This document shows positions 6,058 through 56,376 of a DNA stretch of 64,000 nt, in pieces (within the stretch, counting starts at the first letter, position 1; the number at the start of each line of letters is the position of its first letter). Under the pieces are notes generated by a model. The model was given only the letters and a program-made list of their open reading frames with translations. It was not told where the DNA came from and did not search any database. The position numbers and the translations under genes were made by a program. Origin of the DNA: Nostoc sp. ATCC 43529 (lineage in GTDB: Bacteria > Cyanobacteriota > Cyanobacteriia > Cyanobacteriales > Nostocaceae); the NCBI GenBank assembly GCA_003326205.1, contig LWTK01000058.1:2476-66475 (forward strand), written 5' to 3'.

Positions 6058-6141
6058 CGTTCGCTTCAGTTTGACACCTTGTCTCTTGACAGAAGCGATC
6101 GCCATAGTTAAGAATTCGACTACCAGCTGCCATGCACCACA

Positions 6142-6759: not shown

Positions 6760-6788
6760 CTACTACAAACTTTCAAAATTAAGGAGCA

Positions 6789-7829
6789 TCAGCCAGCTAG
6801 ATAGCTACGTGAGTTAACCCCATATCTTCGTAGAAGTGTGAGAGCTTGTTGTTCCACTTGTCGCACTCGTTCCCGACAAATGCCCATACGTTGACTAATC
6901 TGTACCAGGGTAAGTTCGTGTCCACCTGCTAAACCAAAGCGCAAGATTAATACTTCCTTTTGCTGGGGAGTCAGCTTTGCTAATAGGTTGTGAATGTCTT
7001 GATAGAGTAATTCCCGCTCGGCGTAGCGTTCGGGAGATATTCCATCATCCTCCAGCATATCCTGCAATTGAGTATCCTGCTCAGGCCCAATTCCCATATC
7101 TAAGGAAACAGGTTGACGAGCAAACTGCAAACATTCTCGAATCTGACTGGGTTCCAGATTAAGCGCTTGGGCGATTTCAGTCACGTCGGCAGTGTGACCA
7201 AGCTTTTGAGATAACTCTCGTTGAACACGCTTAATTTTGTTCAGCTTCTCAGCGATGTGAATGGGTAAACGAATGGTGCGGGATTGTTGTGCGATCGCTC
7301 GTGTAATTCCCTGACGAATCCACCAGTAAGCATAAGTAGAAAACTTGTATCCAAGAGTTGGATCAAATTTCTCTACCCCTCGTTCTAGCCCCAATGTACC
7401 TTCTTGAATTAAGTCTAGAAACTCAATATTGCGTTTCTGGTATTTTTTAGCAATAGATACCACTAGCCGCAGATTAGCCTGAATCATCTTCTGTTTGGCA
7501 ATTTGTCCTTGACTTAGTTGTTGCAGCAGCACATTTTCTTTCAATTGCATCTTGTCAGCCCATTCTTGCAGAGTAGGTTCACGCTGTAATTTTTCAGATA
7601 CTTCTTCCTTCGCAGTAATAATTGCCATCATTTGCTGAACTTGTTTAGCAAAAAAAATTTCTTGCTCATGGGTTAACAGAGGTATACGTCCAATTTGATG
7701 AAGATAGATACGCACTATATCTGCTGTAGATGAAAAATCGTTATTCTTGCTCTTAAGTTTAGTTACTTGGGATGCTGAATTAGGCATGAATAGGTTAGCC
7801 TCCATTGAATCAATATTGAATAAATTCAA
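6789..7829 (-). CDS. Group-2 sigma-70 factor (SigB-like); probable start ATG at 7787
   Basis: Region 1.2 YLHQIGRIPLL, region 2 ANLRLVVSIAKKY / DLIQEG / STYAYWWIRQGITRAI, region 4 RERVRQVE. There is no region 1.1. Confidence 0.9.
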   Translation of the reverse strand: MNLFNIDSMEANLFMPNSASQVTKLKSKNNDFSSTADIVRIYLHQIGRIPLLTHEQEIFFAKQVQQMMAIITAKEEVSEKLQREPTLQEWADKMQLKENVLLQQLSQGQIAKQKMIQANLRLVVSIAKKYQKRNIEFLDLIQEGTLGLERGVEKFDPTLGYKFSTYAYWWIRQGITRAIAQQSRTIRLPIHIAEKLNKIKRVQRELSQKLGHTADVTEIAQALNLEPSQIRECLQFARQPVSLDMGIGPEQDTQLQDMLEDDGISPERYAERELLYQDIHNLLAKLTPQQKEVLILRFGLAGGHELTLVQISQRMGICRERVRQVEQQALTLLRRYGVNSRSYLAG

Positions 7830-8103
7830 AAGTTTAAAAAATTATAAATAAACATAAATTAATGAGATGAGAAATATTCTAAGATTCCTCACCAGATCCA
7901 TCTGAAGCACCTTCTATTGACGGTTTACTAAATTTATTAAAGTTTGAAAAATTGTAAAGTTGCTCATTAAACAAGAGACATAGTTATCAAAGCTTTTAAT
8001 ATTGTTAATTTTTACAAATCAGAAGGAGGGGGAATATTTTTGACAGTTGATTGTTTTAGAAGGTGAAAACTATAAAATTCACATTTCATTCCTATCGCCC
8101 AAA

Positions 8104-11100
8104 TCAATTTTCCAACACAGATCCTACTACCTTCCCATTTTCCACAACAGCCGCACTTCGCTTAGGTAACAAAAACCTACCAAACTTAGAATATAAAGCA
8201 GGTAAAACCAGCAAAGTTAACGCCGTAGAAGTAAACAACCCACCTAACACTACAATCGAAAGAGGTTGCAAAATTTCCTTCCCTGGCCCCACTGAAATTA
8301 TCAACGGAACTAAACCCAAAGCTGAAGTTAAAGATGTCATCAAAATAGCGTTGAGTCGTTCCATTGATCCAGCAATTAATACTTCTTTTAAAGACATCCC
8401 TAACGCAACTTTTGTGGTGTAATTATCTACTAATAATAATCCGTTTCGAGTAGCCACACCAAACAAAGTTACAAACCCTACCAATGAGGCTACAGAAACA
8501 ACTCCACCTGTAAAAGCTACCGCAATTACTCCACCCACTAATGCAATGGGCAAGTTAATCATAATCATTGCTGTTGAAGCGATTGATTTCACAGAAAGAT
8601 ACATTAGTACTGTAATCACAACAAAGGAAATAGCACCGAAAACCAGAATATTTTGTGAAGCTCGTTCTTCTGCTTCAAATTGACCTCCATATTGGATAAA
8701 ATAACCTGAAGGAAGTTGCACTTGTGCCTTAACTTTATTTTGAATATCTGTCACTACAGAGCGCAAATCTCTACCTTTAGCATTAGCAGACACCACAATT
8801 AAACGCGAAACATTTTCCCGATTGATAGTATTAGGCCCAGTGCCATAGGCAACCGTAGCAACTTTAGCTAAGGGAATTTTATTACCATCAGGGGTATCAA
8901 CTAACAAATTCTCAATTGTTTGTAGATTTTTGCGATACTGTGGTTGCAACCACACAACCAAATCAAAGCTTTGTTGCTTCTCTAAAACTTGAGAGACTAC
9001 TCTTCCATTGAGCGCAGTTTCAATAATATTAGATAATTGTCCAATAGTTAAACCGTAGCGAGATGCAGCAACACGGTCAAACTTAATTTGAATTTGTTCA
9101 ATAGGAATTTGTGGTTCGAGTTGTAAATCTACAATTCCCGGAATAGATTTTATTGCGTCTTCAACTTGCTTTCCAAGCTTGCGAAGTTCTTCCAAGTCGG
9201 AACCAAAAATTTTGACCGCGATTTGACTCCTGACCCCAGACAAAATTTCATCAATACGGTGAGCAATAAATCCACCAATATTGGATGCAGCCCCTGGTAT
9301 TTTGTTAAACTCTTCCCGCAACCATTCTACGGTAGCTCCGCGATTTTTCATTCCTTTGTCACTCAACCCAATATCAAGGTGAGCCAAATTCACAGGTGCA
9401 GCATCCGGATCATTGGGGGCGCGTCCGGCGCGTAATTGAATATACTTTAATCTAGGGTCGTCTTTGAGTTTATCTTCCAAAGCAAAAGCAGCACTATTGG
9501 TAGCTTCTAAAGATGTACCTGGGTAAAGTGCTAAAGTATTTACCAAAGTTGTTTCTTGGAATTCAGGTAAAAATGCTCGTCCTAAAGTTGGGAAAATTAT
9601 AATTGCTGCTATCATTCCCGCCGCAGCCACAGTAATAACAATTACCGAATTTCTGATAGCAAAATCGAGAAAAAGGTAATAAATCCTTTTACAAACTCTT
9701 GGTACAAAGGGTTCCCTGACTGACATTTTATTGTGAGGTAATAAAATTGCACATAAAGCCGGACTTACAAGCAGCGCTTCTAAGCTAGAAACTACAACTA
9801 CCACCAGATAACTAAGACCCATCGGGCCAAAAATCCGACCTTCCACACCAGCAAGGGCAAATATTGGAGAAAAGACGACAATAGTAATTAAAGTTGCCCC
9901 AATCAGAGATTCCTGGACTTCCTGTACTCCTTCAAAAACAATTTCCAGTACTGGACTAGGGTTGGGAGAGTATTTATTTTGTCGTAATAAACGAAAAACA
10001 TTTTCTGCATAGACAATGGCATCATCGATCGCTGTACCAATGGCGATCGCTAATCCTCCCAAAGTCATTGTATTCAGCCCCAAGCCCAAAAAAGATAATA
10101 CTTGCAATGAAAATATAAAGGTCAGGGCAAAATTCAACAGCACAACTCCAAGAGTCCGCCAATTCATTAAAAAAGGGATGAGGATAACTGCTGCAATGAT
10201 ACTACCTTCCACCAAGGCTGACCTGACATTTTCCACCGAAGTATCGATATAATCTGCTTGGCGGAAGGTTTGATTTACTTTAATTTCTTTCGGTAAACCT
10301 GCTTTTAGCTCAGATATTGCGGCTTCAATAGCGCGGGTGACGGTGGGAGTATCAGCTAGGGGTTGTTTATTCACCATCACCACAACAGCATCTTTCCCAT
10401 TTAAACTACCATCGCCGATTTTCACAGCACCACCAATTTGCACTTGGGCGACATCTCCCAGGCGGACGGGCGTTCCTTGACGGGCGACAATGACAGATTG
10501 TTGAAGATCATCAAGGGATTCAATCCGCCCAATTCCCCGAATTAAAGTTTGTTTATCAGGAGTAGTTAAAAAGCCACCAGGAGCATTGACATTTGCCGCC
10601 TGTACAGCTTCACTTACCTGTTGTAAAGATACATTAAAAGCTTGTAGTTTGTTGAGGTCTACTAACACTTGATACTGACGCACATCACCGCCATACACAA
10701 GTACTTGACTGACACCGGGAACTGCTAAAAGGCGATTCGTCACTTGCCAATCAACAATTCTGCGGACTTCCATGAGGTCGATTTTAGTGGCAGATTGATT
10801 ATTGCCTTCTCCTTCCACAGTCAAGGCGTACTTTAATACAGTACCGATGGGAGAGCTAGTGGGAGCAATTCGTGGGGTTTCGACTCCTTCTGGTAGCTTG
10901 CTTACGGCTTGTTGCAGTCGTTCTTGTATCAACTGGCGGGCTTGAAAGATATCTGTTCCCCAGCCAAAAACAACTCTGACTACAGAAAGTCCGGCTGAAG
11001 AAGAGGAACGAACGGTAGTTAAGCCTGGAGTTCCATTAATGGCACTTTCAATTGGTAATGTCACCAAAGATTCGATTTCTTCTGGCGCTAGTCCAGGGGC

Positions 11101-11259
11101 TGCTGTCTCAATTTCGACTTGGGGAGGTGCAAAGGCTGGAAAAACATCCAGCGGCATTTTGGGAATGGTATTAAAGATGATGACTAATGTGGAAATGAGC
11201 GCAGCAATTACTATAAGCCAGCGTCGAGAAATTACCCATCTAGCAACTGTACTAATCAT
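8104..11259 (-). CDS. Heavy-metal efflux RND permease (CzcA/CusA family)
   Basis: 1051 aa; MPLDVFPAFAPPQV, GTAIDDAIV, ERLNAILMT, GGLFTST. Confidence 0.9.
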   Translation of the reverse strand: MISTVARWVISRRWLIVIAALISTLVIIFNTIPKMPLDVFPAFAPPQVEIETAAPGLAPEEIESLVTLPIESAINGTPGLTTVRSSSSAGLSVVRVVFGWGTDIFQARQLIQERLQQAVSKLPEGVETPRIAPTSSPIGTVLKYALTVEGEGNNQSATKIDLMEVRRIVDWQVTNRLLAVPGVSQVLVYGGDVRQYQVLVDLNKLQAFNVSLQQVSEAVQAANVNAPGGFLTTPDKQTLIRGIGRIESLDDLQQSVIVARQGTPVRLGDVAQVQIGGAVKIGDGSLNGKDAVVVMVNKQPLADTPTVTRAIEAAISELKAGLPKEIKVNQTFRQADYIDTSVENVRSALVEGSIIAAVILIPFLMNWRTLGVVLLNFALTFIFSLQVLSFLGLGLNTMTLGGLAIAIGTAIDDAIVYAENVFRLLRQNKYSPNPSPVLEIVFEGVQEVQESLIGATLITIVVFSPIFALAGVEGRIFGPMGLSYLVVVVVSSLEALLVSPALCAILLPHNKMSVREPFVPRVCKRIYYLFLDFAIRNSVIVITVAAAGMIAAIIIFPTLGRAFLPEFQETTLVNTLALYPGTSLEATNSAAFALEDKLKDDPRLKYIQLRAGRAPNDPDAAPVNLAHLDIGLSDKGMKNRGATVEWLREEFNKIPGAASNIGGFIAHRIDEILSGVRSQIAVKIFGSDLEELRKLGKQVEDAIKSIPGIVDLQLEPQIPIEQIQIKFDRVAASRYGLTIGQLSNIIETALNGRVVSQVLEKQQSFDLVVWLQPQYRKNLQTIENLLVDTPDGNKIPLAKVATVAYGTGPNTINRENVSRLIVVSANAKGRDLRSVVTDIQNKVKAQVQLPSGYFIQYGGQFEAEERASQNILVFGAISFVVITVLMYLSVKSIASTAMIMINLPIALVGGVIAVAFTGGVVSVASLVGFVTLFGVATRNGLLLVDNYTTKVALGMSLKEVLIAGSMERLNAILMTSLTSALGLVPLIISVGPGKEILQPLSIVVLGGLFTSTALTLLVLPALYSKFGRFLLPKRSAAVVENGKVVGSVLEN

Positions 11260-11546
11260 TTGGTTTTTGGTTAAGAAATGACGAAAGGTTTATTTATTCG
11301 TGATAAACGAGTAAGTAAATTTAAATATTAGGTGTGGCTGTTGCTAGCATTAAGCCCCAAATCAGCCCAAAGCGAACTATTCCTAAATAGGATATGAACA
11401 AACTACATTCTTATACTCTTTACGTCTGGAGCGTGAGATTTATAAACTGTCTGTTCACAATCTAAATAGTCTTGCTGTAGGTTGGTTTGATGTTAGAAAA
11501 TTTAACAGAACCAAACTTCAGGTATTATCTGCAACTTCGCTAATCA

Positions 11547-13244
11547 CTAACCACCATCTGAATGTCGAGGACGATCATGCTCCTCAAGATTTTTATCAGA
11601 AGTAGACAGGGTTGGTTGCTTGTGGTTGTCGAGATAAACCTCTGTTTCATAATTGAACCCGTCGTACTCTAAATTACCTGCTGGTACTAAACGGGTACGA
11701 CGATTAGACCAGAAAGCACCTCCCATGAAAGCAGCTACTACAAGTGCTACTCCTCCACCTGCTGTTAACCACAAAGGTAGTGGGAAACTGTTAGTTTTAA
11801 CTTCAGTTTCTTCTGCATGAGAACCACTTTCTTCGTTGTGTTCTTCTTCTGGTTTACTATCACCCCGCAATGATTGAGCGTAAAGTTGGGGTGCACGTTG
11901 GGTGACGATCGCATCTCCCTCAAACAAACCCGTCTTCACTTCAACCATGTCCCCAGAGGTTTGACCCAAGGTCACTTCCGCAGATTGGAAAGCATTCCCA
12001 TTTTGGACGTAGACCATTTTTTTCCCATTCGCATCGACTACAGCCGAGCTAGGAACCGCCAAAATAGGTGCGGATGATTGGTTTGTTAGTACCTCCAATT
12101 CCGCAAACATTCCAGGTTTGAGTTGTCCGCCTGGGTTATTTACTTCAGCTTGTACTGAGACAACCCGTGTTTCCCCTTGTACTACCGCACCAATCTGTGT
12201 AATCTTTCCAGAAAAGGTACGGTCTGGTAAGCTAGCAACTTTTAGACTTACTCTTTGACCTACTTTTACTTTGTCTAAATCTTTTTCATAAATATTGGCT
12301 GTGGCAAAAACCCGACTATCATTGACAATAGTCATGAGTGTGCCACCTGCATCATTAAAAGTTTGACCAAGGGTAACTTGGCGATCGGCAACTTTACCGG
12401 AGATGGGAGCAGTCACTGTTACCAATCCTTTGGCATTGGGACGGTTCCCTATTTGTTGTAGTCTAGTATTATAAGCAGAATCACTAAGACGTAAACGCTC
12501 TTGTGCTACTTGAACAGCAGACTGAGCGCGTTTCATTTGGGCTTCGCTTTCAATGATATCTCGTCTGCTGTTAGCTGAGGTGAGTTTGGCTTTTGCTTCC
12601 GCTAATTGTGTTTGAGATTCGAGCGCGTTGCGACGTGGTAAAGCGCCTTCATTAGCTAACTGTAAATCCTTATTATATTTTTCTTCAGCAAACGCTACCT
12701 GGCTTTGTGCTTGGGCAATGTCGGCGTTAGATATTTGTAAATACCTTTGATAATTTTGTTGAGCTAATCTGGAATCGGCTTGCGCTTGCTGCAAAGAAGC
12801 TATAGCTTCCGCTCGTTTTTCTTGGGAACTAACCCGTAACTCCACCAAGTCAGGACTGGTAACAACGGCAAGGGGTTGACCTTTTTTGACTACAGCACCG
12901 GGTTCCACCAACAATTCAACCACTTTTGCCCCTGTAATTGGGGTATTCACTTCCACTTTTTGGCTAGGTAAGGTTTCAATTTGTCCAGTACTTTTAATAC
13001 CCAAAGCCAGCTGTTGCCGTTTCACTGGTTCGACTTTAATTCCTAGCCTCTGGGCGGTTTCGGCATCAACTTCGACAGAACCACTTGCTTCGCTTCCACC
13101 ACCCTGAAATGAACTTCCACCGGTATGATCGTGTCCAGCACCAGCTAATACAGCCGTGGGAGTTGTCAGTAATAAAAGGCTCAGGAGTGTGCCGGAAACA
13201 CAACGAATTACTGTAGGTGGTTGGAGACTGTTAGAGATTCCCAT
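11547..13244 (-). CDS. RND periplasmic adaptor (CzcB/CusB-like membrane fusion protein)
   Basis: Signal/anchor followed by GAGHDH, a coiled-coil hairpin, VTAPISG and LKPGMFA. It is directly upstream of the permease. Confidence 0.87.
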   Translation of the reverse strand: MGISNSLQPPTVIRCVSGTLLSLLLLTTPTAVLAGAGHDHTGGSSFQGGGSEASGSVEVDAETAQRLGIKVEPVKRQQLALGIKSTGQIETLPSQKVEVNTPITGAKVVELLVEPGAVVKKGQPLAVVTSPDLVELRVSSQEKRAEAIASLQQAQADSRLAQQNYQRYLQISNADIAQAQSQVAFAEEKYNKDLQLANEGALPRRNALESQTQLAEAKAKLTSANSRRDIIESEAQMKRAQSAVQVAQERLRLSDSAYNTRLQQIGNRPNAKGLVTVTAPISGKVADRQVTLGQTFNDAGGTLMTIVNDSRVFATANIYEKDLDKVKVGQRVSLKVASLPDRTFSGKITQIGAVVQGETRVVSVQAEVNNPGGQLKPGMFAELEVLTNQSSAPILAVPSSAVVDANGKKMVYVQNGNAFQSAEVTLGQTSGDMVEVKTGLFEGDAIVTQRAPQLYAQSLRGDSKPEEEHNEESGSHAEETEVKTNSFPLPLWLTAGGGVALVVAAFMGGAFWSNRRTRLVPAGNLEYDGFNYETEVYLDNHKQPTLSTSDKNLEEHDRPRHSDGG

Positions 13245-22819: not shown

Positions 22820-23065
22820 ATGAAGAGCGATAAAATTTTAGGATGGATAGAAACGATTGTTGTTTGGTCTTTAATGGGGATGCTATGTTTGGTCGGGTTA
22901 GGCAGATTGCCTGTTAACCCGACGAGTTTGTTTGACTTTACTGCGTCTTTTTACTATTTTGCTGTTGTGGTTGTTATTTGTCCAAAGACTCCACTGAGTT
23001 TTAATAAAAAGCTGATTTTTGGATTTATAGCTTTTATGTATGGTGTGTGGTTTGGGTTGATTTAA
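22820..23065 (+). CDS. Small membrane hypothetical protein
   Basis: 81 aa with three hydrophobic segments; GGAGG RBS-like sequence upstream. Confidence 0.5.
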   Translation: MKSDKILGWIETIVVWSLMGMLCLVGLGRLPVNPTSLFDFTASFYYFAVVVVICPKTPLSFNKKLIFGFIAFMYGVWFGLI

Positions 23066-23832
23066 TCTAGCTCTTTAGCAGAATCCTGGTTTTTGAATTT
23101 TTTTTGACTCTGTTCACGGCGTGCTTGTTGCTCATTGAACAGAGTCTTGAAACGTTGAAATTCCTCTTTGGTGAGATTATTAATGGTGATAGAGTACTCT
23201 TCTGAGTTATTGTCACAAGATGCCAAGAGTACTTCTCGACTTTGTTCGGAATCAGGCCAATTTCTATCAAGGCTAAGAGTTTGCGAATCTTCTTCTAATT
23301 TTAGACTTGCGGTATATTCTTCACTTTCATAAATAATACCTTGTGTCTCTTTATCTGATTTTCCCAATATATCTAAGCGGTCTAAAATTATAGGAATAAC
23401 AAACTGTCTAATTTGAAAATCTGCGGTAAGAGATTGTACTTTGTCTTCTGGAGTTTCTTCTACTGGTTTGCCATTATTGTCGTCATTTTTAGTTGTGAGA
23501 TTTTTTAGAATCTCTGGTTCAATTGTATTTTCTTTAGACTGGTTTACTTCGGGTTGTAAAGATAGTTTTTGACTAACTGAATTAACAGAAATGATAGGTT
23601 CAATTTCTGTCGAGCTTAACTTTACTTCCTCTTGCGCTATTTCACTGATTCTATTCATTTCTGAATTTAAGTTTAACACAGCCTGTTTTCGTTCCTCAGC
23701 AGTTGGAGGCTTTTTTGCAGATTCTTCAAATTTATCATCAGGGATGTTAAGCTGTTTGATCAATTCTCTGAGGAGACTGGCTTGCATAGCCGGAGTTAAA
23801 CCTTCTACTGGAAGTTCGATTAGTTCTTTCAT
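23062..23832 (-). CDS. Hypothetical protein, likely co-transcribed with the giant ORF
   Basis: 256-aa ORF starting 8 bp after the stop of 23840..31714. Confidence 0.65.
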   Translation of the reverse strand: MKELIELPVEGLTPAMQASLLRELIKQLNIPDDKFEESAKKPPTAEERKQAVLNLNSEMNRISEIAQEEVKLSSTEIEPIISVNSVSQKLSLQPEVNQSKENTIEPEILKNLTTKNDDNNGKPVEETPEDKVQSLTADFQIRQFVIPIILDRLDILGKSDKETQGIIYESEEYTASLKLEEDSQTLSLDRNWPDSEQSREVLLASCDNNSEEYSITINNLTKEEFQRFKTLFNEQQARREQSQKKFKNQDSAKELD

Positions 23833-23839
23833 GCTAAAA

Positions 23840-26800
23840 TTACCTCTCCACTAAATCTTTTTTGACATTTTTGAGAGCATTATCGATACGGGAATTCATG
23901 AGTTGAAAGTCCTGTAATGTTTCATCACTAATGTTACTTACTTGGGTTCTTCCTTCTTTGACATATAATAATATGTTGTCATTTTTATCTTTAACTAAGT
24001 AAATTTTGTCTTGAACTTTTGTAGCAATTTGGTATTTTTCTGTTTGTACTGACATAATGCCATTGATATCTTCCTGTCCAATGATTTTAACTAAACTTTG
24101 GGAAAGACTGGTCATTTCATTAATTTTTTCTAGCTCCTTAATATCTTGCTCCATTGCCTTAAAAGCGTTCTCAAGACTGATATTTTCTTTGATGTATAAA
24201 TCAGTTACCTCCTGAATTCTATTGAGATATGTTTCTGATTTACCGAGCTTTTCAGCTGCTACATACCAGTCTTGAAGATTTTGCACTGTATTAGCTTTCA
24301 TCCGCTCGATAATGCTATCCATCGCTCCAAACTGCTGTATTCTGGGTTGAGAAGGTGATGCAAGTGCTTGGTCAATATTTGGTTGTTGGCTTTGTTGTGG
24401 AGATAAAATGCTCTTGTCATTAGTAATAAATGGGTTATGTGATACTTGTGTATTGGAAGAAATAGTGTTGATATTAATTTTGATATTTTCTATAGGATTA
24501 AATACAGCGTATCCTTGGGAAGTTTGTTCTACTTTGTAGCCTTTTTCTTGAAGATAATTTTCAACTAATTGATCAGTTCCTTGTGCGTTTCCGACTATGA
24601 AAGAGCTTTTGGCTTCTATTGCCTTATTAAGTAACCGTTTGTAATGATTTTCAAAAGTTTGGGCGATTTGCTCGCTTGTCACTCCGCGCCACGGGCCAGA
24701 TCCGGATACCATAATGATGTCGTCTTTTGAGTAATTTCCAGTGTTGGCGCGTTCTCCCCATGCTTGCTCGTAATTCCGAGTGCTTGAAGGTGTTTCGGGG
24801 GGCGCAGCTGATTTACCGATAAACTGGGTAGCTATTTGTGCCATCGCAATATCTTTTTTCATGTGTTCAGCGACGGCGGCGTTTATCGGTTCGAGTTGGG
24901 ATAGTGGATTTGTCAGCGGGCGATCAGTCTGTTCGGACTTTTCCTGCTGGGTTTGTACTGTAGTTTGTTGTGACTTTTCAACTACATTGATATATGCTTC
25001 GCTGAGGGCTTGAATAAATGCGGATTCTTTACCTTTACCTTCCCACCTTTTATCCTGGGCGTTAGTTATGTTGGTGAGGCAGTGCGTTGTGGAGGACAGT
25101 CGCGTGGGCGGGTTTCCCGACTTGAGCCAACTGTCCGTTGGGGTTCCCCCCGTTGTAGCAACTGCCGTACAGTTTTCCAGCCACTCAGTTCCTCCGCGTT
25201 TAGCGATCGCCTCAGTTAGCCGCGGGTGTTGTTCGAGTTTAGCCTGAAGCACTTCTACCATTAGCTTGTATTCATCAGCCGATGGATGCAACTGCTTTTG
25301 GTGGTTAAATGCGTGTTCGGCGGATGCGTATGCTACTCCTTCAGGTTTTTGGACATGGTTCTCTACTCCATACTGTCCGGCGGGAGCTTCTGGATTATTA
25401 TTGACTGAAACTTGGTAATCGTTTTGTAGCTTGCCTTGTTCTTTTGCGAGTGCAGTAGCAAGACTGAGTGCTACTCCAAGCCCATCTTTGGAGTCAGGAC
25501 TGATATTTACTGGAGTTGCAGGTTGTTTTTGAATGGCTGGGAATGGAACAACTTTGCCATTGACATAATCCCCTAGCGGCTCCATGAATAAGCCATATAG
25601 CTGACTCTTACTCGCCTGGGTTTGGGTAAGTTCTTTCGGTGAATGCTTTTCCCATTTCGCCCACGCTTGCTGGTAACTTGGATCTTGAATCATTTCGGGG
25701 GTAATTTTGTATTGCTTACCCACCCGGAAAGCAACTTGCTCGCCGTTTTTACCTTGAGCGATCGCAATATCTCCCTCTTTGACACCATAAGTTTTGTGGT
25801 AGTCTACACCTCGGGTAGTGTGTATTCTACCGTGTCCCCGCATGGCATCGATAGTTGTATCAGCTGGTACTTTGGAAGGTTCGCCGTGCAGATGCAGCGA
25901 ATAAACCATTGGTACTGGTTTTCCAGATATAGTCGGGTTGTCTGGAATCTCAGGGTTAGCAGCGCGTGCGGCAGTGGAATTCCCGATGGCGATAATTTCT
26001 TCTACAGTTGGTTGGTTTAAAGGGTGTGAGGGTATGTTTCGGGTGGCTTCTCTGAGGCTGGTATAACTGCGCTCTACTTTAATTTCTCCCCCAGGTGTCC
26101 ACTCGTTAGTTTTGATGGTGAGGTCGCTGTTGCTTTGGACTATCGCACGAGGAGGTTGGTTTGAGGCGAGGAAGTTCTCAAATTTTTGGCGAACGCTGTT
26201 TTCTCTGCCCAGGTCATTTTTAATTGACCAGATGTTGATAGACCATCTGCCAGCCTCAGTATTGAGGGCAGCGTGTTCGTTCTTGCAGTTAAAGCGCGTT
26301 ACAGTACCGGACTCAAGTTTAAACTCTTGGTATTGTGCGTCCTGATTCTCCTCCCTAGTCCATGCCATTCGTTCCTTAGCGGCGCGATATCCCCAATCAG
26401 AATTTCCGATATTAATGCTGCGGGCTTCCGTTGTGGCATAGGAGTCATCGCGGTGGTAGTTGATGCCAGTGCCGGGGTTCTCGGAGTAAGTGACCAGCAC
26501 AATATCAGCATCAGGATATACTTGCTTGACAAGTTCCATTAACTTGTCGTCTTGTATCCCTGGCTTGAAGTCTTTATCCTTCAAATCCCATTTTGCACCG
26601 ACCCATGCGACTTGTCTTAGTAGTGCGTAGTTGGATTTATCGTTTTCAAGTATAGGTTTGAGGTGGGTTTCAAGGTGCGATCGCAATTGTTCTACTTTTT
26701 CCTCGCTTATCTTACCCAATATTTCGACAGCTTTGGTTTGATCGGCTTGACGCGAGTTTGGTAGTAATATTGCTTGGTTTTTAGTTTCTATTTTCGTTTT

Positions 26801-29800
26801 TTTTGATACTTGTACTTCAACTGAGTTTTGATAAATTTGTGAAATTCCTGCAACTGTGGCATTAATACCTGATTGAATGTTAGTTATATTCTTTTCTGGT
26901 ACAGCTTTTGCAGGAATAATTAGTACTGGAGAATCTTCTTGATTAAGCTCTCTGGGACGGTTAGGTAGTGCTTGTAGAGCTTTTTTGTACTCACTATTTT
27001 CTGGAATTTGGTTTAATTCTAAACGACTACCTTCAGTCGCAATTTTTTGATTTAACTCTGCACTAAGCTGTTCATAGTGGTAAAATCCCTCAACTTCACC
27101 GATATTAATCGGTTCTCCAAGTAAACTATTTAATTCTTCGTTTATTTTTTCACTAATCTCATTTTTATTAAAAATAAATGTAGCTGTGTTACTCTCAATA
27201 AAATAATGATTTTCAGTAGATTTTGATTCTAGCCAAGTAGTTACAGCGATCGCGTCTTGTGCGGGAACAACTAATCCGAGAGCTTCTTTAGTTTCTATCT
27301 GCGATCCATCTGGAGAACTATATTGTTGGTTTGGGTTATAAAAATATACAGTTTGTTCTGGAATAATTGGAGTGGGTTGTGATGATGTATTTGCACTCTT
27401 GATATTACCACCAGCCCGGTCAATAAATGTTTGTTTTAATTCGCCACTCATGGTACTTTCATCGAGTACGAATACACTCATACCTTTTTTGGCTTCTAAC
27501 CGAGCTTGTGATCCGGTAAGCTGTTCGTATGATACTCCTACTTTTTCTAGATACTTTTTAGTTTTGTCGGCTATATTTTCGTCAACTGCTAATCCTAAAA
27601 GCCCTACTAATTTTTGTTCTTTATCTTGGAATATGATTGTAGGACGTTCATTAATTTTACCGAGTATTTGGTTACGTTTTTCTTGCTGTTCGTTTCTGAC
27701 AGACTTCTCATTACTGATAAGCTGACTGCGCTTAACCCATTTGTCGGGATACTCTACTGTTTCTGGATTAATAGTTATTTTACAGGTACTTTCATTACTG
27801 GTAATCTGTACAGGGATAGTAGTTCGTTGTTGGTTTAAGCGAATAATACCCGTATCAATTAGTTTTTGTACAGTGCTACTTTCTTTCCTTTGCCACTGTC
27901 TTTGTACATTCTCTCTATTTAACTCGGTTTCAAGGCGTTCACTATGCTGACCAATAATACCGAGTGATTGATCGCCAATTTTAGCAATATAAACGTGCTT
28001 TTTATCAAATGCCCGAACTAAAGTTTCTTTAAATGCTTGGTTGCTAATCTCCTGTTTTTTGTACTTTGGATTAGTAATATTAATTCGTAAAAAGTTTCCC
28101 TTAGATGTCTCTGCTATTGCATAGGCATTTTGTCCGGTGATGATGGTTTGAATTTTAAGCTGTAACTGTTGCCCATTACCGGGTTTTTCTGCTAGCCAAC
28201 CTTCAGCAATACCCTCTTTAATTGATTCCTTATCAATGTTGCCTAATTTCTCAGGTTTATTACCATTTTGAAGATAAATGCTATAGTCTTCCCGAATAAG
28301 GTCAACCTTTTCGATTGTTAACATTACAGGCTCATTATTGAACCTTTGGGAATTTCCAAACTTATTAACTTCACCTACTTTAAAGGTAAGTTCTGGAAGT
28401 CCGGGTACTTTGGTTGTAATAGAGGTGGTATATACTTCACCTTTTTCAACGCTGGCAATAGCAACACTACCAATTGGTAGTCTGGCGTTACTTTGTTCTA
28501 TATTTCCAAATGTTTCGTAATTACCTTCCTGGTTCTGGAGTTCAATGACACTTTTTCCATCTTCAGCTAGATTAAATCGAATATTTTGAGGTTTATTTTC
28601 ATGAAATAATTCACTACTCCTGTCGAAGCCAGTGATACTAAACTCGTTAAATCTGAGTGTGTCTAACTGACTGATAATCTCTTCAGAAAAGGCAGCAAAG
28701 GCGAAATTAGAAACTTTCTTTTGGTAATCGCTACTTTTATCACTACTACTCTCACGAGTAGTTGATACTGCCCAGGTAGCAGCTGCCATTGCTAGCTTTT
28801 GTCCTTCTGGAATTGAATTGTAAAATTCTTCTGCTATCTGGTAGGCTTTTTGGTAAAGAAGTTTAATTTGACCTTCGCTTAGTTCAGCTTGGAAGGCTAT
28901 TCTGTTAGACGTTACTTCCTGTCCAAGTCCAATTCCTATCTCTTCGGCTTTATTTTCTTGCTCCTTAGCAAGTGTTCCTAATGCCCTAAACTTGGGTTTG
29001 TTGTTCTCAGTTTCATCGTTAATTTGGGCATAAACTAGATATTTATGTGGGCGGTTACTGTTGCGCTTGTCTTCAGATATTTCTGATAGCTTGATTGTAA
29101 TTTTATTAGCTTTCCAGATAAATTCGTTGTCATACTGTAAAAGGTTAGTTACACTTACTTGATTGCCGTTAGCAAGGGTAATATTTGCAGACGGCCCTTT
29201 TTCAGTTTCTCTTTGTCTAGATAGCTGACTCGCTTGGTTAAAGGATTTGTCGAATTCTTTTTTGACAAGAGTAGCTATTAATCGCTGTTCGTTAGAAAAC
29301 TCGACACCTTTAAATAAAGCTTGAAATTGGGCGATTTCACGCGATTCGAGACGAGCTTTTTCAAAATACTGGTTGGTTTGAGCAATTAGTAATTCAACAG
29401 GCGAGTATCCCGTGGGTTGAATTGTATTGTCAATATAAACGTCTTTCTTCTTATCCTTAATATAGTTAACCTCCCGGTGGAGAATCCGATTGTTGTTGCG
29501 GATAATTTCCATTTCGGGTTTTTTGGCACTTTTGAAGAGGTCAACTGCAATTTGGTTTTGAAATGCTGCCTCGGCAATCATTTCGCGGTATATCTTGATG
29601 TTAGTATTCATTGCCACCAGTGCATTGACCTGGTTTAGGGATTCTTGCTGAACAGTTTTGATAAACTCTTCCATGTAACCGCGATACTTGGTCGGAATCT
29701 CCTTCCCTTCAATACCCTTGGATTTTGCCCAGGCTTCTGTTTTAAATAAATCTTCGTAGTGTTTGGCTACCTGCTGTACGTACTCAATTTGGTCTTTTTC

Positions 29801-31714
29801 ACTACCAAAGTTTTTCAGGATAGTAATTTCTGACTCTAACGCCTCAATTGAGGTCAGGTGATTGTTGATAACACCGACACTAATGCCATCGCTCATGTGG
29901 ATGGCGATTTCTTCAAATTCCGGCTGACTGCCATCTTCCTGGTAAAAAGATTGTTTTTTGAGTTTAACAGTTGGATCGTAAGCGTTTTCAGGCAGGTTGC
30001 GCTCCCTTGCCTCGGCAGTGAGGTTTGGATACCTGCTTGCCCGCTCAAAGCCAATACAATCACCATCGTAGTCGCGTGCTTGACGCTCTTGTTCGGACTC
30101 TTGAGGAAGAATTTCTAGCTCGTAACCAGCCGATTGTAGTTCTGAAATATACTGATTAAATTTGTTGGTAAACTCGATTTTGTCTTTAGTTTCGAGCTTG
30201 CCGATGTTTTTATATAAGTAATTTTCAATACCTTCTAATTGAATATTTTTACTTTGGGCTTCGGGTAGGGCAGATTTAATTTGCTCGTTTAGACGGTTAT
30301 AAATGCGATCGCTTGTTTCGTCTGAGACAGCGATCGCACCCGCGAGAGGTTGACCATCAGGCCCAAGGATGTCTTCTACAATTTTGTTAGTTGAGACGCA
30401 CAGACCATTTGAGTTGAGGAAAGGGGAGCGGAAGTTGAGAACTTCTTCCCCATCTTGATAATGCGGGATGGAGATTTCCCCATTTTGTAGGTCTTTAGAG
30501 GGAATCACCATTGCCCGCTCAAATGTGAGCGTCTTGCCGATGGCGATTTCTTTCCACTCGTTTTGAACGAACCGGGCCAGTTCGCGCTGTACTTTCTCAG
30601 TTTCGAGAAGTTGACCTTCTCCTTGCAGATCAGCTTTGATGAGTTTGTAAATAAATGAATCAGTAGCAATGCGATCGCCTACGGCGGGCGCTCCTGCGCC
30701 ATCGCGCAAAAGTTCTAAATCTTCTGCTACTGTTGGATCTTCTGCTGCTTGTTCTTCTAGTGTGGTTGCTTGTTCTTCAAGAAAAGCTTTCCGCTTCTCG
30801 TACTTTTCGCAGTAAAGTTGTGCAAGTTGCCGGGGGTCGTCCTGTACAACATTCAGCTTTTTGGCTTCAAGTTCTAGCTGTTCGGTAAAGTCTTTCAGCC
30901 CGTTAGGGAATGAAGCGAGTAACTGCGAGATAGCTGTTTTACCGAGTTCAGATTGTGATTTTTCACCTAGCCAGATATTTTGCCTGTACAGTCCAGGTTG
31001 AATTTGGGGCTTGCTTGGCCCATTAGGGTTGTCTTTATCAGTTCCCTTGAATGCAGATAAGGGAAGAATTAAGTCAATTCTAGTTGAGTTCTTGGGATCT
31101 GAATAATTGAGAATTTGGTCAAGGTTTGCAGGGCGTAGTGTACCTTTGCCAAAGCGGTATTTATTATCATCTCCGTCTTGGTCAGTCCAACCGAAGCGGT
31201 GTTGAATTACTCGATATTTATCACCTTTTTGATGCTTAGTTAATTCGTAATATAGGTCTGTGGATATTTGCCCGTAACAGTCTCCTGTTAGCTGATATGC
31301 TTGGTCATTACTAATAACGCCGCCATTCTCACCATTATTATCATCGACAATTAGAATATTTAACTCTTTCTTGACAGCATTTTGACATGAACCAAGAAAG
31401 ATAGACCCGTAAGCACCTCTATCTTTGTTATCAGGGCATAATTGTCTAATTGTATCTAGACATTCTTCTGGCCCATATAACAACCGAGTTTTTGATGATA
31501 ATAATAATTTATGACCTTCAGGATGATTAATTAATTGTTCCACAGTAGACTTTTCGTCTATATGCCCAAACGAAAAGTTTACCCCAGGAAAGAAATGTTC
31601 TAGTAAGGTATTATTAAGTTCTTCCTTTAACAGCGAATCTGGATTATTTGTATTACCATCTGTATGAATCCATTGATTTAATCTAGTGTCAAAATGTTTA
31701 GCTTGAATTGTCAT
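23840..31714 (-). CDS. 2624-aa multidomain protein: two-barrel (RdRP/YonO-like) RNA polymerase + AlkB-like 2OG-Fe(II) dioxygenase + ASCH-like + NADAR-like + SLOG-like domains
   Basis: Polymerase motifs GDCYGQIS (aa144-151), QHRFG (171), GKGTL (189), ILPLSAFKG, RSP (429) and DYDGD (548-552). Dioxygenase motifs H1754-x-D1756...H1814...R1823. Then GHGRIHTTR..KEGD; SAEHAF..MVEVLQAKLEQHPRL..DKRWEG; IMVSGS..FIVGNAQGTDQL. Confidence 0.75.
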   Translation of the reverse strand: MTIQAKHFDTRLNQWIHTDGNTNNPDSLLKEELNNTLLEHFFPGVNFSFGHIDEKSTVEQLINHPEGHKLLLSSKTRLLYGPEECLDTIRQLCPDNKDRGAYGSIFLGSCQNAVKKELNILIVDDNNGENGGVISNDQAYQLTGDCYGQISTDLYYELTKHQKGDKYRVIQHRFGWTDQDGDDNKYRFGKGTLRPANLDQILNYSDPKNSTRIDLILPLSAFKGTDKDNPNGPSKPQIQPGLYRQNIWLGEKSQSELGKTAISQLLASFPNGLKDFTEQLELEAKKLNVVQDDPRQLAQLYCEKYEKRKAFLEEQATTLEEQAAEDPTVAEDLELLRDGAGAPAVGDRIATDSFIYKLIKADLQGEGQLLETEKVQRELARFVQNEWKEIAIGKTLTFERAMVIPSKDLQNGEISIPHYQDGEEVLNFRSPFLNSNGLCVSTNKIVEDILGPDGQPLAGAIAVSDETSDRIYNRLNEQIKSALPEAQSKNIQLEGIENYLYKNIGKLETKDKIEFTNKFNQYISELQSAGYELEILPQESEQERQARDYDGDCIGFERASRYPNLTAEARERNLPENAYDPTVKLKKQSFYQEDGSQPEFEEIAIHMSDGISVGVINNHLTSIEALESEITILKNFGSEKDQIEYVQQVAKHYEDLFKTEAWAKSKGIEGKEIPTKYRGYMEEFIKTVQQESLNQVNALVAMNTNIKIYREMIAEAAFQNQIAVDLFKSAKKPEMEIIRNNNRILHREVNYIKDKKKDVYIDNTIQPTGYSPVELLIAQTNQYFEKARLESREIAQFQALFKGVEFSNEQRLIATLVKKEFDKSFNQASQLSRQRETEKGPSANITLANGNQVSVTNLLQYDNEFIWKANKITIKLSEISEDKRNSNRPHKYLVYAQINDETENNKPKFRALGTLAKEQENKAEEIGIGLGQEVTSNRIAFQAELSEGQIKLLYQKAYQIAEEFYNSIPEGQKLAMAAATWAVSTTRESSSDKSSDYQKKVSNFAFAAFSEEIISQLDTLRFNEFSITGFDRSSELFHENKPQNIRFNLAEDGKSVIELQNQEGNYETFGNIEQSNARLPIGSVAIASVEKGEVYTTSITTKVPGLPELTFKVGEVNKFGNSQRFNNEPVMLTIEKVDLIREDYSIYLQNGNKPEKLGNIDKESIKEGIAEGWLAEKPGNGQQLQLKIQTIITGQNAYAIAETSKGNFLRINITNPKYKKQEISNQAFKETLVRAFDKKHVYIAKIGDQSLGIIGQHSERLETELNRENVQRQWQRKESSTVQKLIDTGIIRLNQQRTTIPVQITSNESTCKITINPETVEYPDKWVKRSQLISNEKSVRNEQQEKRNQILGKINERPTIIFQDKEQKLVGLLGLAVDENIADKTKKYLEKVGVSYEQLTGSQARLEAKKGMSVFVLDESTMSGELKQTFIDRAGGNIKSANTSSQPTPIIPEQTVYFYNPNQQYSSPDGSQIETKEALGLVVPAQDAIAVTTWLESKSTENHYFIESNTATFIFNKNEISEKINEELNSLLGEPINIGEVEGFYHYEQLSAELNQKIATEGSRLELNQIPENSEYKKALQALPNRPRELNQEDSPVLIIPAKAVPEKNITNIQSGINATVAGISQIYQNSVEVQVSKKTKIETKNQAILLPNSRQADQTKAVEILGKISEEKVEQLRSHLETHLKPILENDKSNYALLRQVAWVGAKWDLKDKDFKPGIQDDKLMELVKQVYPDADIVLVTYSENPGTGINYHRDDSYATTEARSINIGNSDWGYRAAKERMAWTREENQDAQYQEFKLESGTVTRFNCKNEHAALNTEAGRWSINIWSIKNDLGRENSVRQKFENFLASNQPPRAIVQSNSDLTIKTNEWTPGGEIKVERSYTSLREATRNIPSHPLNQPTVEEIIAIGNSTAARAANPEIPDNPTISGKPVPMVYSLHLHGEPSKVPADTTIDAMRGHGRIHTTRGVDYHKTYGVKEGDIAIAQGKNGEQVAFRVGKQYKITPEMIQDPSYQQAWAKWEKHSPKELTQTQASKSQLYGLFMEPLGDYVNGKVVPFPAIQKQPATPVNISPDSKDGLGVALSLATALAKEQGKLQNDYQVSVNNNPEAPAGQYGVENHVQKPEGVAYASAEHAFNHQKQLHPSADEYKLMVEVLQAKLEQHPRLTEAIAKRGGTEWLENCTAVATTGGTPTDSWLKSGNPPTRLSSTTHCLTNITNAQDKRWEGKGKESAFIQALSEAYINVVEKSQQTTVQTQQEKSEQTDRPLTNPLSQLEPINAAVAEHMKKDIAMAQIATQFIGKSAAPPETPSSTRNYEQAWGERANTGNYSKDDIIMVSGSGPWRGVTSEQIAQTFENHYKRLLNKAIEAKSSFIVGNAQGTDQLVENYLQEKGYKVEQTSQGYAVFNPIENIKININTISSNTQVSHNPFITNDKSILSPQQSQQPNIDQALASPSQPRIQQFGAMDSIIERMKANTVQNLQDWYVAAEKLGKSETYLNRIQEVTDLYIKENISLENAFKAMEQDIKELEKINEMTSLSQSLVKIIGQEDINGIMSVQTEKYQIATKVQDKIYLVKDKNDNILLYVKEGRTQVSNISDETLQDFQLMNSRIDNALKNVKKDLVER
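25076..25169. repeat. Nested small dispersed repeats inserted in frame in the NADAR-like domain
   Basis: On the minus strand, ACGGCAGTTGCTACAACGGGGGGAACCCC...CAACGCACTGCCTC encloses a related unit (GACAGTTGGCTCAAGTCGGGAAACCCGCCCACGCGACTGTC). The segment is GC-rich against an AT-rich background. Confidence 0.65.
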
Positions 31715-35209: not shown

Positions 35210-36742
35210 CTATTGCTCAATACCTCTTTGCGATCGCGAAGCGCTGCTGCGAAGCGCAGATCGCGATTTATTCATTAACGCTTGTTGGGTAAAGAAACGC
35301 AAACTTTCAATCTGCTCAATTTCGTTTGTTGTTAGTCGAGTTGGTATCTCTTCGTACCAGGTTCTCTGACTGTAGCAGATTTGCATCACAGGAGTATTAT
35401 CCCCATGACGGTAAACACTCAGAGTATTGTTATCTAAGCTGGCACTCAACTCCCGTCCTTTGATACGGAAGTTATTGGTAACAAGCATATAGTCAGTAAT
35501 TATAAAAGGCAGATGTTTGAGAGTAGAAGGCAGAAGGGTAACAGAAGCAGGAATAAGGGAAGATTGCTCTTCCAGGATTTGTTGAGTAGTAAGACCGTTT
35601 TCTTCTGAAATATCCTGTTGTGGGTTCTGTTTCTTTGGATGCGGCTGAACTTTTTTCTTGGTCTTATTTGCTTCCGAAGTGGGGTTATATTCTAATTTTG
35701 GTTGTATTATCGAAATCTCACTGGGATAATTACTGTTTAGTGTATATATAGTAACAAATTTTTTAGAGTTACTATCGGTATCACCATTACTATCACTTAT
35801 ACTGCTATTAGTAGGTTTATCACTATATAAGTAATCAATGTTACTTAAAATTATACTATTTATGCGAGCAATTGCTTTGGCTTTAGCTTGTTGAATTACT
35901 TCTTTATCTTTATCTGGGTCGTACATGATTCCATATTCAGACCGCAGTTTGTTCCAGCTATAAGGTTTGTATACTTGATAACCAGCAATTTTTACATCAT
36001 TATGAGTGTAGGTAAAGCCTAGTAGTTCTTCCCCCTGCATCTTAGGCAATACTCCAATGTTATTTTCTTCCAGGCGTTGAATAAACGTAGAGACGGTGGG
36101 ACTATCCTTAATGGCTTCTCCTATTGCTTGGCGAATAATTTCCTTACTTGTTGGGGTTTTGTGCTTACTGTTGACTGCTCTAATACTTTTTGATCGGTTG
36201 GGACTGGTGAGTGTAATTATTCCGTACTCTTGCTCTAACCTAGAGGCGACGGCTTCATTTGTTGTCGGTGTTACTTCCAATCCTAGTACCGCCGCGATGC
36301 GTCTAGTTGAGACTTGGGAGTTGAAATAATCATAGGAATCATTAACTAAGCTGCCATCTAACCGAATCCGGGAGGTGATTATATGCAGGTGTTCGTGGTT
36401 GCGATCGTGGTGGCGTACTGCAACGAACTGACTGGTAGCTGCTACAGATGATTCTTCCTTGGGCAAGTATCCCATATCTTTGAGATATTCTCTTGCTACA
36501 TAACTGTACTGACTGTTGGATAAATGCTCGTGGTAGTTTGGGCGGTGTGCGATTGAGATGATGAGGTGCGCGCACTGCCGTTTAACTGCTTTGTTGGTGT
36601 ACTTGATGGTGAGAAACTGCTGGTTAAATTCATCTGGCTTTGTTCCCATCATATTAGTATCGACAATCGCAGCATCATCTTTCCCCAAGACATACTTGAG
36701 CGTGTCGAGAAAATTCGGTTTTTTATAAATGACGGGAATCAA
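35210..36742 (-). CDS. MOB-P-type relaxase (MobA/VirD2-like)
   Basis: LKYVL (motif I Tyr), HLIISI (motif II), RHHDRNHEHLHIITSRI (HUH motif III). Confidence 0.9.
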   Translation of the reverse strand: MIPVIYKKPNFLDTLKYVLGKDDAAIVDTNMMGTKPDEFNQQFLTIKYTNKAVKRQCAHLIISIAHRPNYHEHLSNSQYSYVAREYLKDMGYLPKEESSVAATSQFVAVRHHDRNHEHLHIITSRIRLDGSLVNDSYDYFNSQVSTRRIAAVLGLEVTPTTNEAVASRLEQEYGIITLTSPNRSKSIRAVNSKHKTPTSKEIIRQAIGEAIKDSPTVSTFIQRLEENNIGVLPKMQGEELLGFTYTHNDVKIAGYQVYKPYSWNKLRSEYGIMYDPDKDKEVIQQAKAKAIARINSIILSNIDYLYSDKPTNSSISDSNGDTDSNSKKFVTIYTLNSNYPSEISIIQPKLEYNPTSEANKTKKKVQPHPKKQNPQQDISEENGLTTQQILEEQSSLIPASVTLLPSTLKHLPFIITDYMLVTNNFRIKGRELSASLDNNTLSVYRHGDNTPVMQICYSQRTWYEEIPTRLTTNEIEQIESLRFFTQQALMNKSRSALRSSASRSQRGIEQ

Positions 36743-56356: not shown

Positions 56357-56376
56357 TTATTGTTTTTTGGCATAAA

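Follow-up and report, generated by a model that had tools for sequence, protein, structure and literature searches.

A 64,000-nucleotide stretch of Nostoc sp. ATCC 43529 (contig LWTK01000058.1, positions 2,476 to 66,475; hereafter the window) carries a giant plasmid gene, a single open reading frame (ORF) on the minus strand (23840..31714) that encodes a protein of 2,624 residues. Judged from comparison with its homologs, this protein holds a payload zone of exchangeable modules, bounded by an N-terminal core and a C-terminal tail that are both constant. Four modules are found in the window protein: an AlkB-type dioxygenase, confirmed by its modelled fold, a putative ASCH/YqfB-like module, a divergent NADAR domain supported by profile alignment, and a small alpha/beta module that is best treated as an undescribed family. 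As a known kind of thing the protein looks like a polyvalent protein, and what looks new is a cyanobacterial plasmid version of it with an AlkB and NADAR payload. We put the chance that the zone removes base adducts from the transferred strand, in a polyvalent-like establishment protein, at somewhat under one half (about 0.45).

A first-pass annotation, made from the letters of the sequence, had described positions 24500-26650 as a tandem of nucleic-acid repair and protection domains fused behind a polymerase. These positions correspond to codons ~1689-2405 of the one uninterrupted ORF. The observation is largely real, and its interpretation is partly supported. The residues H1754-R-D1756, H1814 and R1823 were found exactly at the positions given, and the strings GHGRIHTTR, KEGD, SAEHAF, DKRWEG, IMVSGS and FIVGNAQGTDQL are all present. 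Of the four domain names, AlkB (fold, invariant residues) and NADAR (hhalign, catalytic residues) hold, ASCH is plausible but not significant, and SLOG is unsupported (all tests negative).

Exchangeable modules between constant ends

For a survey of the modules the protein was divided into the N-terminal core, the four candidate modules and the C-terminal tail, and each part was compared with the best 120 of the 246 protein homologs found at E<=0.001. The core (about 1,400-1,650 residues) is kept in all 120 homologs listed, and the C-terminal 150-220 residues are kept in all complete members, whatever payload they carry. Between these ends the four modules are present or absent independently of each other, sometimes in a changed order, and at least 15 combinations or orders occur among the 120 family members. 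Domain swapping among homologs, which had been proposed as a check of the original reading, is strongly confirmed by this survey. The commonest architectures are the ASCH-like module only (37 members), AlkB-ASCH-NADAR-SLOG (16), none of the four modules (15), ASCH-NADAR-SLOG (13), AlkB-ASCH-NADAR (10) and AlkB-ASCH-SLOG-NADAR (6), where "SLOG" is the label of the first-pass annotation for the alpha/beta module. Other members hold a Pfam-recognised RNase H (PF13456), PIF1/AAA_30 helicase or cpYpsA SLOG domain (PF12694) in the same zone.

A HMMER search with residues 1651-2400 against 1.84 billion cluster representatives yielded 459 proteins at E<=0.001. Each module is also known alone, as a protein of 130-220 residues, and as part of unrelated proteins, the longest with 6,057 residues. 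The description of the region as a tandem of discrete domains is borne out by this occurrence of every segment alone, or in other orders, in homologs and unrelated proteins. The stand-alone homologs are all annotated as "hypothetical" in their sources, and the stand-alone copies sit in phage-like or plasmid contexts. In two homologs with a deletion, P0013 and P0014, a truncated ASCH-like module runs straight into the alpha/beta module; going by their sequences, they are evidence for recombination within the cassette zone.

All four modules are under purifying selection. Compared with the ortholog on plasmid pCC7120beta of Nostoc PCC 7120, the ratio of nonsynonymous to synonymous substitution rates (dN/dS) is 0.08 for the AlkB-like, 0.22 for the ASCH-like, 0.16 for the NADAR-like and 0.10 for the alpha/beta module, next to 0.29 for the linker between the first two modules, 0.14 for the N-terminal core and 0.22 for the C-terminal tail. 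The possibility that the segments are chance motif matches could be ruled out, because the motifs are invariant, the modules occur independently, the folds are predicted with confidence and dN/dS is low.

Identity of the four modules

The first module (residues 1661-1850; 26165..26734; this and all other parts of the giant ORF lie on the minus strand) has an AlkB-like fold and a site for the metal and 2-oxoglutarate (2OG), as confirmed by structure modelling. An AlphaFold2 (AF2) model of residues 1661-2050, based on a 43-sequence alignment, has a mean predicted local distance difference test score (pLDDT) of 94.5, and the fold begins at about residue 1661 (window 26734), some 28 codons beyond the end of the interval first annotated. 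The Foldseek top 50 from the PDB consists of the AlkB family throughout, bar one YcfD-like arginyl hydroxylase at rank 40. The matches comprise C. elegans NMAD-1, ALKBH6, E. coli AlkB, ABH2, ALKBH5, ALKBH3, ALKBH7 and Ofd2, at probability 1.0, E 8e-8 to 3e-6, about 200 aligned columns and template modelling (TM) scores (target) of 0.52-0.65. The best structural match is NMAD-1, a demethylase of N6-methyladenine (6mA), and many of the top matches are ALKBH5, an eraser of N6-methyladenosine (m6A). The scores are the same for E. coli AlkB, ABH2, ALKBH3 and ALKBH6 and do not separate repair-type enzymes from m6A/6mA erasers.

The residues H1754, R1755, D1756, Y1759, H1814, R1823 and W1829 are among the invariant columns of 22 sequences of 27-39% identity, mostly from stand-alone relatives. 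They are found in the motifs HRDDSY (26438..26455, with H1754 and D1756), NEHAAL (26264..26281, with H1814) and RWSINIW (26228..26248, R1823 to W1829). It is the nearly pure AlkB content of the Foldseek list, together with the invariant HxD...H...R, that upholds the original naming of a 2OG-Fe(II) dioxygenase. Sequence profiles gave less: the best Pfam match of the module, PF03171, stays below its gathering score (15 bits vs 23, E=0.03-0.04), the 22 relatives match PF13640 (seven), PF03171 (two) and PF13532 (one) with a best E of about 6e-4, and a profile search of the PDB sequences returned only a spurious ribosomal protein (eL39). The module shares with the AlkB family (E. coli AlkB, ALKBH2/3/5/6/7, NMAD-1) the double-stranded beta-helix with an N-terminal lid, the HxD...H triad and the first 2OG-binding Arg, whereas it differs from it in its low identity of 10-18%, its length of about 170-190 residues, its score below the PF13532 threshold and the Trp in place of the second Arg. 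The domain is a separate clade, compact and with RWSINIW instead of RxxxxxR, of which about 25 stand-alone representatives were found.

AlkB enzymes prefer single-stranded substrates. AlkB domains are also embedded in plant-virus replicase polyproteins, likewise in cis with the polymerase (here putative) of a mobile replicon. The gene of one stand-alone AlkB-like protein, P0185 (184 residues; L004:8001-11541), belongs to a phage-like series of small genes on one strand, where its neighbours encode an HNH protein and a CCA-adding/poly(A) polymerase-HD enzyme; this suggests an RNA- or DNA-repair neighbourhood. In the window protein the AlkB-like module is followed by a structured linker of helices and short strands (residues 1851-1924; 25943..26164), mostly modelled at pLDDT >90.

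The third module (residues 2075-2250; 24965..25492) is supported as a divergent NADAR domain by its alignment to the YbiA clade. The hhalign probability is 85% against E. coli YbiA (P=6e-6) and 95.7% (E=9e-9, 110 columns) against more than 100 Pfam-labelled sequences of the YbiA clade. The motif SAEHAFNHQK (25295..25324, with E2133 and K2140) aligns with SEHYFQAQK of YbiA, the spacing from Glu to Lys being +7 in both. WLE of the motif WLENCT (25166..25183) pairs with LVE of YbiA, which places E2180 at the conserved acidic position, and DKRWEGKG, which begins with the motif DKRWEG (25037..25054), pairs with DAYWGDGG. The register could be fixed because two family members that lack an insert of ~20 residues read PVEFAGNKYPDAKQACIHQKK, which lines up with PIKVDGKTWPTSEHYFQAQKF in YbiA. 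In the NADAR of E. coli C7, E88, K95 and a third acidic residue are required for guanine de-ADP-ribosylation (Schuller et al. 2023, PMC11543638), and the window protein keeps the equivalents of all three (E2133, K2140 and E2180). It is on these residues and the two hhalign scores that the NADAR assignment of the first-pass annotation is upheld, the Pfam threshold and a Foldseek match not having been reached.

Weaker signals are in line with the alignment. Six of 15 diverged relatives have sub-threshold Pfam NADAR matches (E 0.008-1), and a profile search of the PDB sequences gave three matches, among them YbiA and a "NADAR domain-containing protein", at E about 1. The AF2 model of the NADAR and alpha/beta modules has a pLDDT of 88.9; with Foldseek, five viral NADAR proteins are among its weak matches in BFVD (E 1.2-3.8, TM (target) up to 0.40). 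Like the NADAR superfamily (YbiA, the DarG1-type antitoxins and phage AdfN; PMC11543638, PMC11825919), the module has a helical core, the S-x-E-H-x-F-x-x-Q-K motif, the acidic "LvE" position and a use in mobile elements. Unlike known NADARs it has some 20 additional residues ahead of the catalytic motif and, following E2180, an insertion of 31 residues; it also resides within a giant protein, neither alone nor paired with DarT. NADARs associated with DarT1 typically have a DNA-binding extension.

The insertion directly after E2180 is an in-frame stretch of 93 nucleotides (residues 2185-2215; 25070..25162). It is not found in the pCC7120beta homolog, and other homologs have inserts of differing length and sequence at that site. 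A 7-bp inverted repeat, GGACAGT/ACTGTCC, is contained in it; the stretch was rejected as a repeated element or hairpin, being unique within the window and having a folding z-score of -0.9. Some family members (P0017, P0023, P0033, P0041 and P0042) contain two NADAR-like copies that flank a Pfam-recognised cpYpsA SLOG domain, and several NADAR-like copies have Lys, Asn, Gln or Ala in place of the catalytic Glu.

The second module (residues 1925-2045; 25580..25942), with the motifs GHGRIHTTR (25811..25837) and WEKHS (25640..25654), is a putative small ASCH/YqfB-like module. In the confident AF2 model its elements are ordered beta-alpha-beta-beta-beta-alpha-alpha-alpha-beta, an order that we take to match that of the 103-residue ASCH protein YqfB. 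In the Foldseek search with the two-domain model the list was filled by AlkB matches. Pfam, NCBIfam, PHROG and the PDB sequences contained no match for the module or for 19 diverged relatives. The hhalign alignment to YqfB, which is not significant, runs co-linearly over YqfB residues 2-103 and brings T1966, R1968 and E2022 opposite T24, R26 and E74, whereas Lys21 faces a gap or Arg1963. In 20 diverged ASCH-like sequences T1967 and E2022 are invariant and the T1966 position is mostly T. Four residues of YqfB, including T24, R26 and E74, are needed for N4-acetylcytidine hydrolysis according to mutagenesis (PMC6972931). The module resembles YqfB in length, element order and these T/R/E positions and differs from it in lacking a match for Lys21, in an alignment probability of 2.5% and in lacking a PF04266 match.

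Within the family the ASCH-like module comes after the AlkB-like module in 34 of the 37 members that have the latter. P0163 and P0267 combine it with a segment that bears a Macro-domain-like signature (GYMGAGLAKAI), a fusion that links it to ADP-ribose biology. One stand-alone copy was found on a phage-like contig. On sequence grounds, the ASCH identity is suggestive, a reasonable lead rather than a result.

The last module (residues 2270-2397; 24524..24907) was confidently modelled by AF2 as a small alpha/beta domain of three beta strands and four helices. It contains the motifs ATQFIG (24815..24832), IMVSGSG (24695..24715) and FIVGNAQGTDQL (24566..24601), and its strands ATQFIG, IIMVS and FIVG are of the parallel type. 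The name SLOG-like, given to it in the first-pass annotation, is not supported, since the module has no significant match to any SLOG family in sequence, profile or fold and has three strands only. Pfam searches with 23 diverged members found YAcAr in two of them (E=0.028) and nothing else, NCBIfam and PHROGs gave no match, and a search of the PDB sequences returned thermosome noise only. Aligned with the cpYpsA SLOG domain of the family itself, the module reached an hhalign probability of 0.2%, placing FIVGNAQGTD on the KVISGGQTGAD motif alone. It resembles the SLOG domains (cpYpsA PF12694, YAcAr PF10686, DprA) in a beta-strand, a G-x-x-x-G-x-D motif (VGNAQGTDQL vs SGGQTGAD in cpYpsA) and a helix; unlike the SLOG superfamily, it has no more than the three strands and no significant match. 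The argument that the last module binds single-stranded DNA in the manner of DprA is therefore without basis, as neither SLOG nor DprA was significantly matched in any test.

The alpha/beta module is the most widespread of the four. It is present in 76 of the 144 50%-cluster representatives newly listed (the longest has 6,057 residues) and in 18 of the 25 representatives with a NADAR-like module. In the family it takes the zone in which other members have a genuine cpYpsA SLOG domain, frequently with NADAR-like copies on its flanks. SLOG, NADAR, Macro and DUF4326 domains co-occur and are fused in DNA viruses, where they are described as a set for ADP-ribose processing (Iyer et al. 2022, PMC9503650), and on this analogy the alpha/beta module probably does a SLOG-like job alongside NADAR. 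The similarity in context shows a like role, not membership of the SLOG family. On a metagenomic contig (L007:2974-9295) a stand-alone alpha/beta copy is encoded four genes downstream of a relaxase and a NikA-like gene. A split DEAD/ResIII helicase precedes this copy, and behind it come a gene that weakly matches DUF4326 and a RecG-like helicase. The module is also contained in P0211 (4,650 residues) and P0225 (4,830 residues), which show no Pfam family at E<=0.001 over their full length.

Possible role of the payload zone

We propose that, once in the recipient, the giant protein would work on the entering single strand, as do polyvalent proteins and the RP4 TraC and ColIb Sog primases. Its core would prime or transcribe the incoming strand, and the payload enzymes would strip off base adducts that block this synthesis. 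The AlkB-like domain would remove N-alkyl groups and the ASCH-like module N-acyl groups; NADAR, aided by the alpha/beta module, would remove ADP-ribose placed by DarT-type defence toxins. NADAR enzymes take ADP-ribose off guanine in single-stranded DNA (PMC11543638), and phage NADARs (AdfN) defeat DarTG1, a proven counter-defence (PMC11825919). A role in the establishment of transferred DNA agrees with the setting of the gene on a plasmid and near a relaxase. The giant gene lies downstream of the relaxase gene, on the same strand, both in the window and in pCC7120beta, and by this position it resembles the RP4 TraC primase gene. RP4 TraC and ColIb-P9 Sog are large nucleotide-polymerising proteins of the transfer region, encoded downstream of the relaxase and thought to act on the incoming strand. 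They have a DnaG/TOPRIM core, in contrast to the putative DxDGD two-barrel core and the adduct-removing payload of the window protein.

The likeness to polyvalent proteins as described by Iyer, Burroughs, Anand, de Souza and Aravind (2017, PMC5512222) lies in a single very long polypeptide, encoded on a conjugative plasmid near the relaxase, that holds several unrelated enzymatic domains of shuffled content. Their themes include the jump-starting of transcription or replication and the countering of host defences. The window protein combines at least two disparate catalytic domains in one plasmid polypeptide, and its architecture varies among relatives. Family scans detected none of the hallmark polyvalent domains (zincin protease, ArdC, methylase, SNF2, MuF) in it.

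Several points weigh against the proposed role. We infer the substrates, the anti-defence role and the transfer of the protein into the recipient, putatively by a type IV secretion system. Polyvalent proteins were few in cyanobacteria according to the survey of them, in which AlkB, ASCH, NADAR and SLOG go unmentioned (PMC5512222), and the family could thus be a different kind of thing. In scans of the whole protein and of its separate segments with Pfam, NCBIfam and PHROG, no module reaches threshold. The N-terminal core has no Pfam, NCBIfam or PDB sequence match, which leaves its polymerase nature putative. In the RxxxxxR motif of the AlkB-like domain the first Arg (R1823) is invariant, and the second position is an equally invariant Trp (W1829, in RWSINIW); since Trp stands at AlkB's second Arg, the substrate may differ from that of AlkB. 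The NADAR-like module scores 16.4 bits against Pfam PF08719, below the gathering score of 35.1, and the Foldseek search with the model of NADAR and alpha/beta gave a PDB top 50 without NADAR (best E 0.2). The 31-residue insertion adjoining the active-site Glu is G+C-rich and predicted to be disordered (pLDDT <50), and some homologous NADAR-like copies lack the catalytic Glu or Lys. For the ASCH-like module the hhalign probability is 0.4% against YqfB and 2.5% against 117 sequences of the YqfB clade (P=0.019, not significant); with PF04266 (ASCH) matching none of 20 members, the ASCH/PUA name first given to it is plausible yet statistically unsupported. Foldseek searches with the alpha/beta module, in the PDB and BFVD, returned generic Rossmann-like folds (best E 0.2-0.3), with SLOG, LOG and DprA all missing among the matches.

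Part of this evidence can be read in another way, in which the pair of NADAR-like and alpha/beta (or cpYpsA) modules would destroy or sequester immune signals derived from nicotinamide adenine dinucleotide (NAD) in the recipient, such as the cyclic ADP-ribose isomers of TIR/Thoeris-type systems, and AlkB and ASCH would be a separate pair directed at nucleic acids. Degradation of such signals has been proposed for viral SLOG-NADAR-Macro fusions, and the set of SLOG, NADAR, Macro and DUF4326 domains that co-occur and fuse in DNA viruses speaks for it (PMC9503650). So do the high share of NADAR-like representatives with an alpha/beta module, the true cpYpsA SLOG domains beside or between NADAR-like copies in homologs, the stand-alone alpha/beta protein adjoining a DUF4326-like gene and the fusion of the ASCH-like module to a Macro-like segment in P0163. 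For the pair by itself, this reading would be as good as DNA repair. For the whole we consider it rather unlikely: the alpha/beta module gave no SLOG match, the window NADAR retains the residues for guanine de-ADP-ribosylation, the fusion to a putative polymerase core and AlkB indicates nucleic-acid substrates, and none of the results points to Thoeris-type systems in the hosts.

The protein might also be a resident replication or transcription enzyme, neither delivered nor engaged in counter-defence, whose accessory domains would do housekeeping by repairing the templates, primers or transcripts of the enzyme itself, as is thought of the AlkB domains embedded in plant-virus replicases. In this direction point the RNase H and PIF1-type helicase that homologs add in the same zone (primer processing, unwinding), the genes for PolB, clamp loader and beta-clamp that are also on the plasmid, and the result of the family scans of the giant protein, in which a secretion signal or processing protease was not found. 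The gene is, moreover, downstream of the relaxase and not in an identified leading region; against this it can be said that the RP4 TraC primase is encoded downstream of the relaxase as well, yet transferred as a protein. Rapid shuffling of the payload between close relatives is typical of conflict-driven genes, and domains of the NADAR, SLOG and Macro type are known components of conflicts, so that we hold a purely resident enzyme to be improbable. Least convincing, and in our view most unlikely, is that the AlkB-like and ASCH-like pair erases donor epigenetic marks (N6-methyladenine, N4-modified cytosine) from the incoming strand and thereby evades modification-dependent (type IV) restriction, as the Foldseek scores fail to separate the AlkB subfamilies, the ASCH assignment is itself not significant and no precedent is known, although NMAD-1 and ALKBH5 among the top fold matches, the role of ASCH proteins as N4-acetylcytidine erasers (PMC6972931; bioRxiv 10.64898/2026.02.27.708502), the regular order of the two modules in the family and the departure of RxSxNxW from the 2OG motif of repair-type AlkB would agree with it.

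If the removal of base adducts from the transferred strand is the correct reading, the polyvalent-protein strategy reaches cyanobacterial plasmids, where it has been reported to be rare, and a theme unlisted for plasmids is added to it, the enzymatic removal of base adducts by AlkB-type demethylation and NADAR-type de-ADP-ribosylation. The latter has so far been known from phages, as their answer to DarTG1; a survey of anti-defence genes in plasmid leading regions does not mention NADAR, AlkB or DarT, and a literature search found no paper on the giant Nostoc protein. A much bolder version, which we regard as doubtful, is that an injected YonO-like polymerase with a swappable payload erasing methyl, acyl and ADP-ribosyl marks represents an unrecognised class of polyvalent establishment protein of the Nostocales, with at least two payload domains (YqfB-like and alpha/beta) as new enzyme families that would be found elsewhere, too, in giant proteins of up to 6,000 residues. 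Base-adduct erasure would then be a general anti-defence strategy of conjugative elements. Whatever their activity, the ASCH-like and alpha/beta modules are two compact, strongly conserved families without a Pfam, NCBIfam or PHROG model; they recur across giant proteins and hundreds of sequence clusters and are good candidates for structural and functional study. The giant proteins carrying the alpha/beta module are large uncharted stretches of protein. Gene flow in Nostoc and Anabaena naturally runs through plasmids of this kind, whose establishment functions matter for cyanobacterial genetics.

Core, tail and plasmid setting

The constant N-terminal core (residues 1-1650; 26765..31714) is a putative two-barrel polymerase of the YonO/RdRP-like kind. 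In six sequences that diverge to as little as 32% identity, FRSP (residues 428-431), DYDGD (residues 548-552; 30059..30073) and about 60 further columns do not vary, and the two motifs recall those of the double-psi barrels in two-barrel RNA polymerases and RNA-dependent RNA polymerases (RdRPs). A single PHROG match was obtained with the core, to the unannotated phrog_34895 (E=3.8e-5, residues 96-224). Among five families, Ruprich-Robert and Thuriaux (2010, PMC2919709) report one of YonO-like proteins in cyanobacteria, and the core probably belongs to this cyanobacterial two-barrel family. The placement of the modules "behind the polymerase" could not be confirmed: the core has the FRSP and DYDGD motifs but no Pfam or PDB sequence match. 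The near-constant C-terminal tail (residues 2401-2624; 23843..24514) has no family match and is a candidate translocation/secretion or docking signal.

At the DNA level the giant gene shares 95% identity with a plasmid from Nostoc sp. C052 and ~89% with ten further Nostocales plasmids, including pCC7120beta. At least 80% of the gene is covered in 11 plasmid records, and 11 of the 15 records matched in the DNA search are typed as conjugative. Among the protein homologs listed, all those with a source-given name are cyanobacterial. The relaxase gene upstream of the giant ORF (35210..36742, minus strand) is of the MobA/VirD2 type (Pfam PF03432, E=1.3e-20), and the syntenic region of pCC7120beta is typed as MOBP relaxase / MPF_T, conjugative.

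On the other side of the giant ORF, an ORF for 256 residues (23062..23832, minus strand) lies 7 nucleotides past its end. It has no family match, is also annotated in pCC7120beta (WP_010993978.1) and may encode a co-expressed partner of the giant protein. The remaining genes of the window concern partition, heavy-metal efflux and a PolB polymerase with clamp loader and beta-clamp. The last three form a row (54524..59569, minus strand) of a family-B DNA polymerase with an exonuclease domain (610 residues), a DnaX-like clamp loader (453 residues) and a beta sliding clamp (458 residues), so that the plasmid, by these predicted products, encodes replisome parts of its own. The heavy-metal resistance cluster (2565..13244) consists of a P-type ATPase with HMA domains, a resistance-nodulation-division (RND) pump of the AcrB/CusA type and a CusB/HlyD-type adaptor, as in pCC7120beta.

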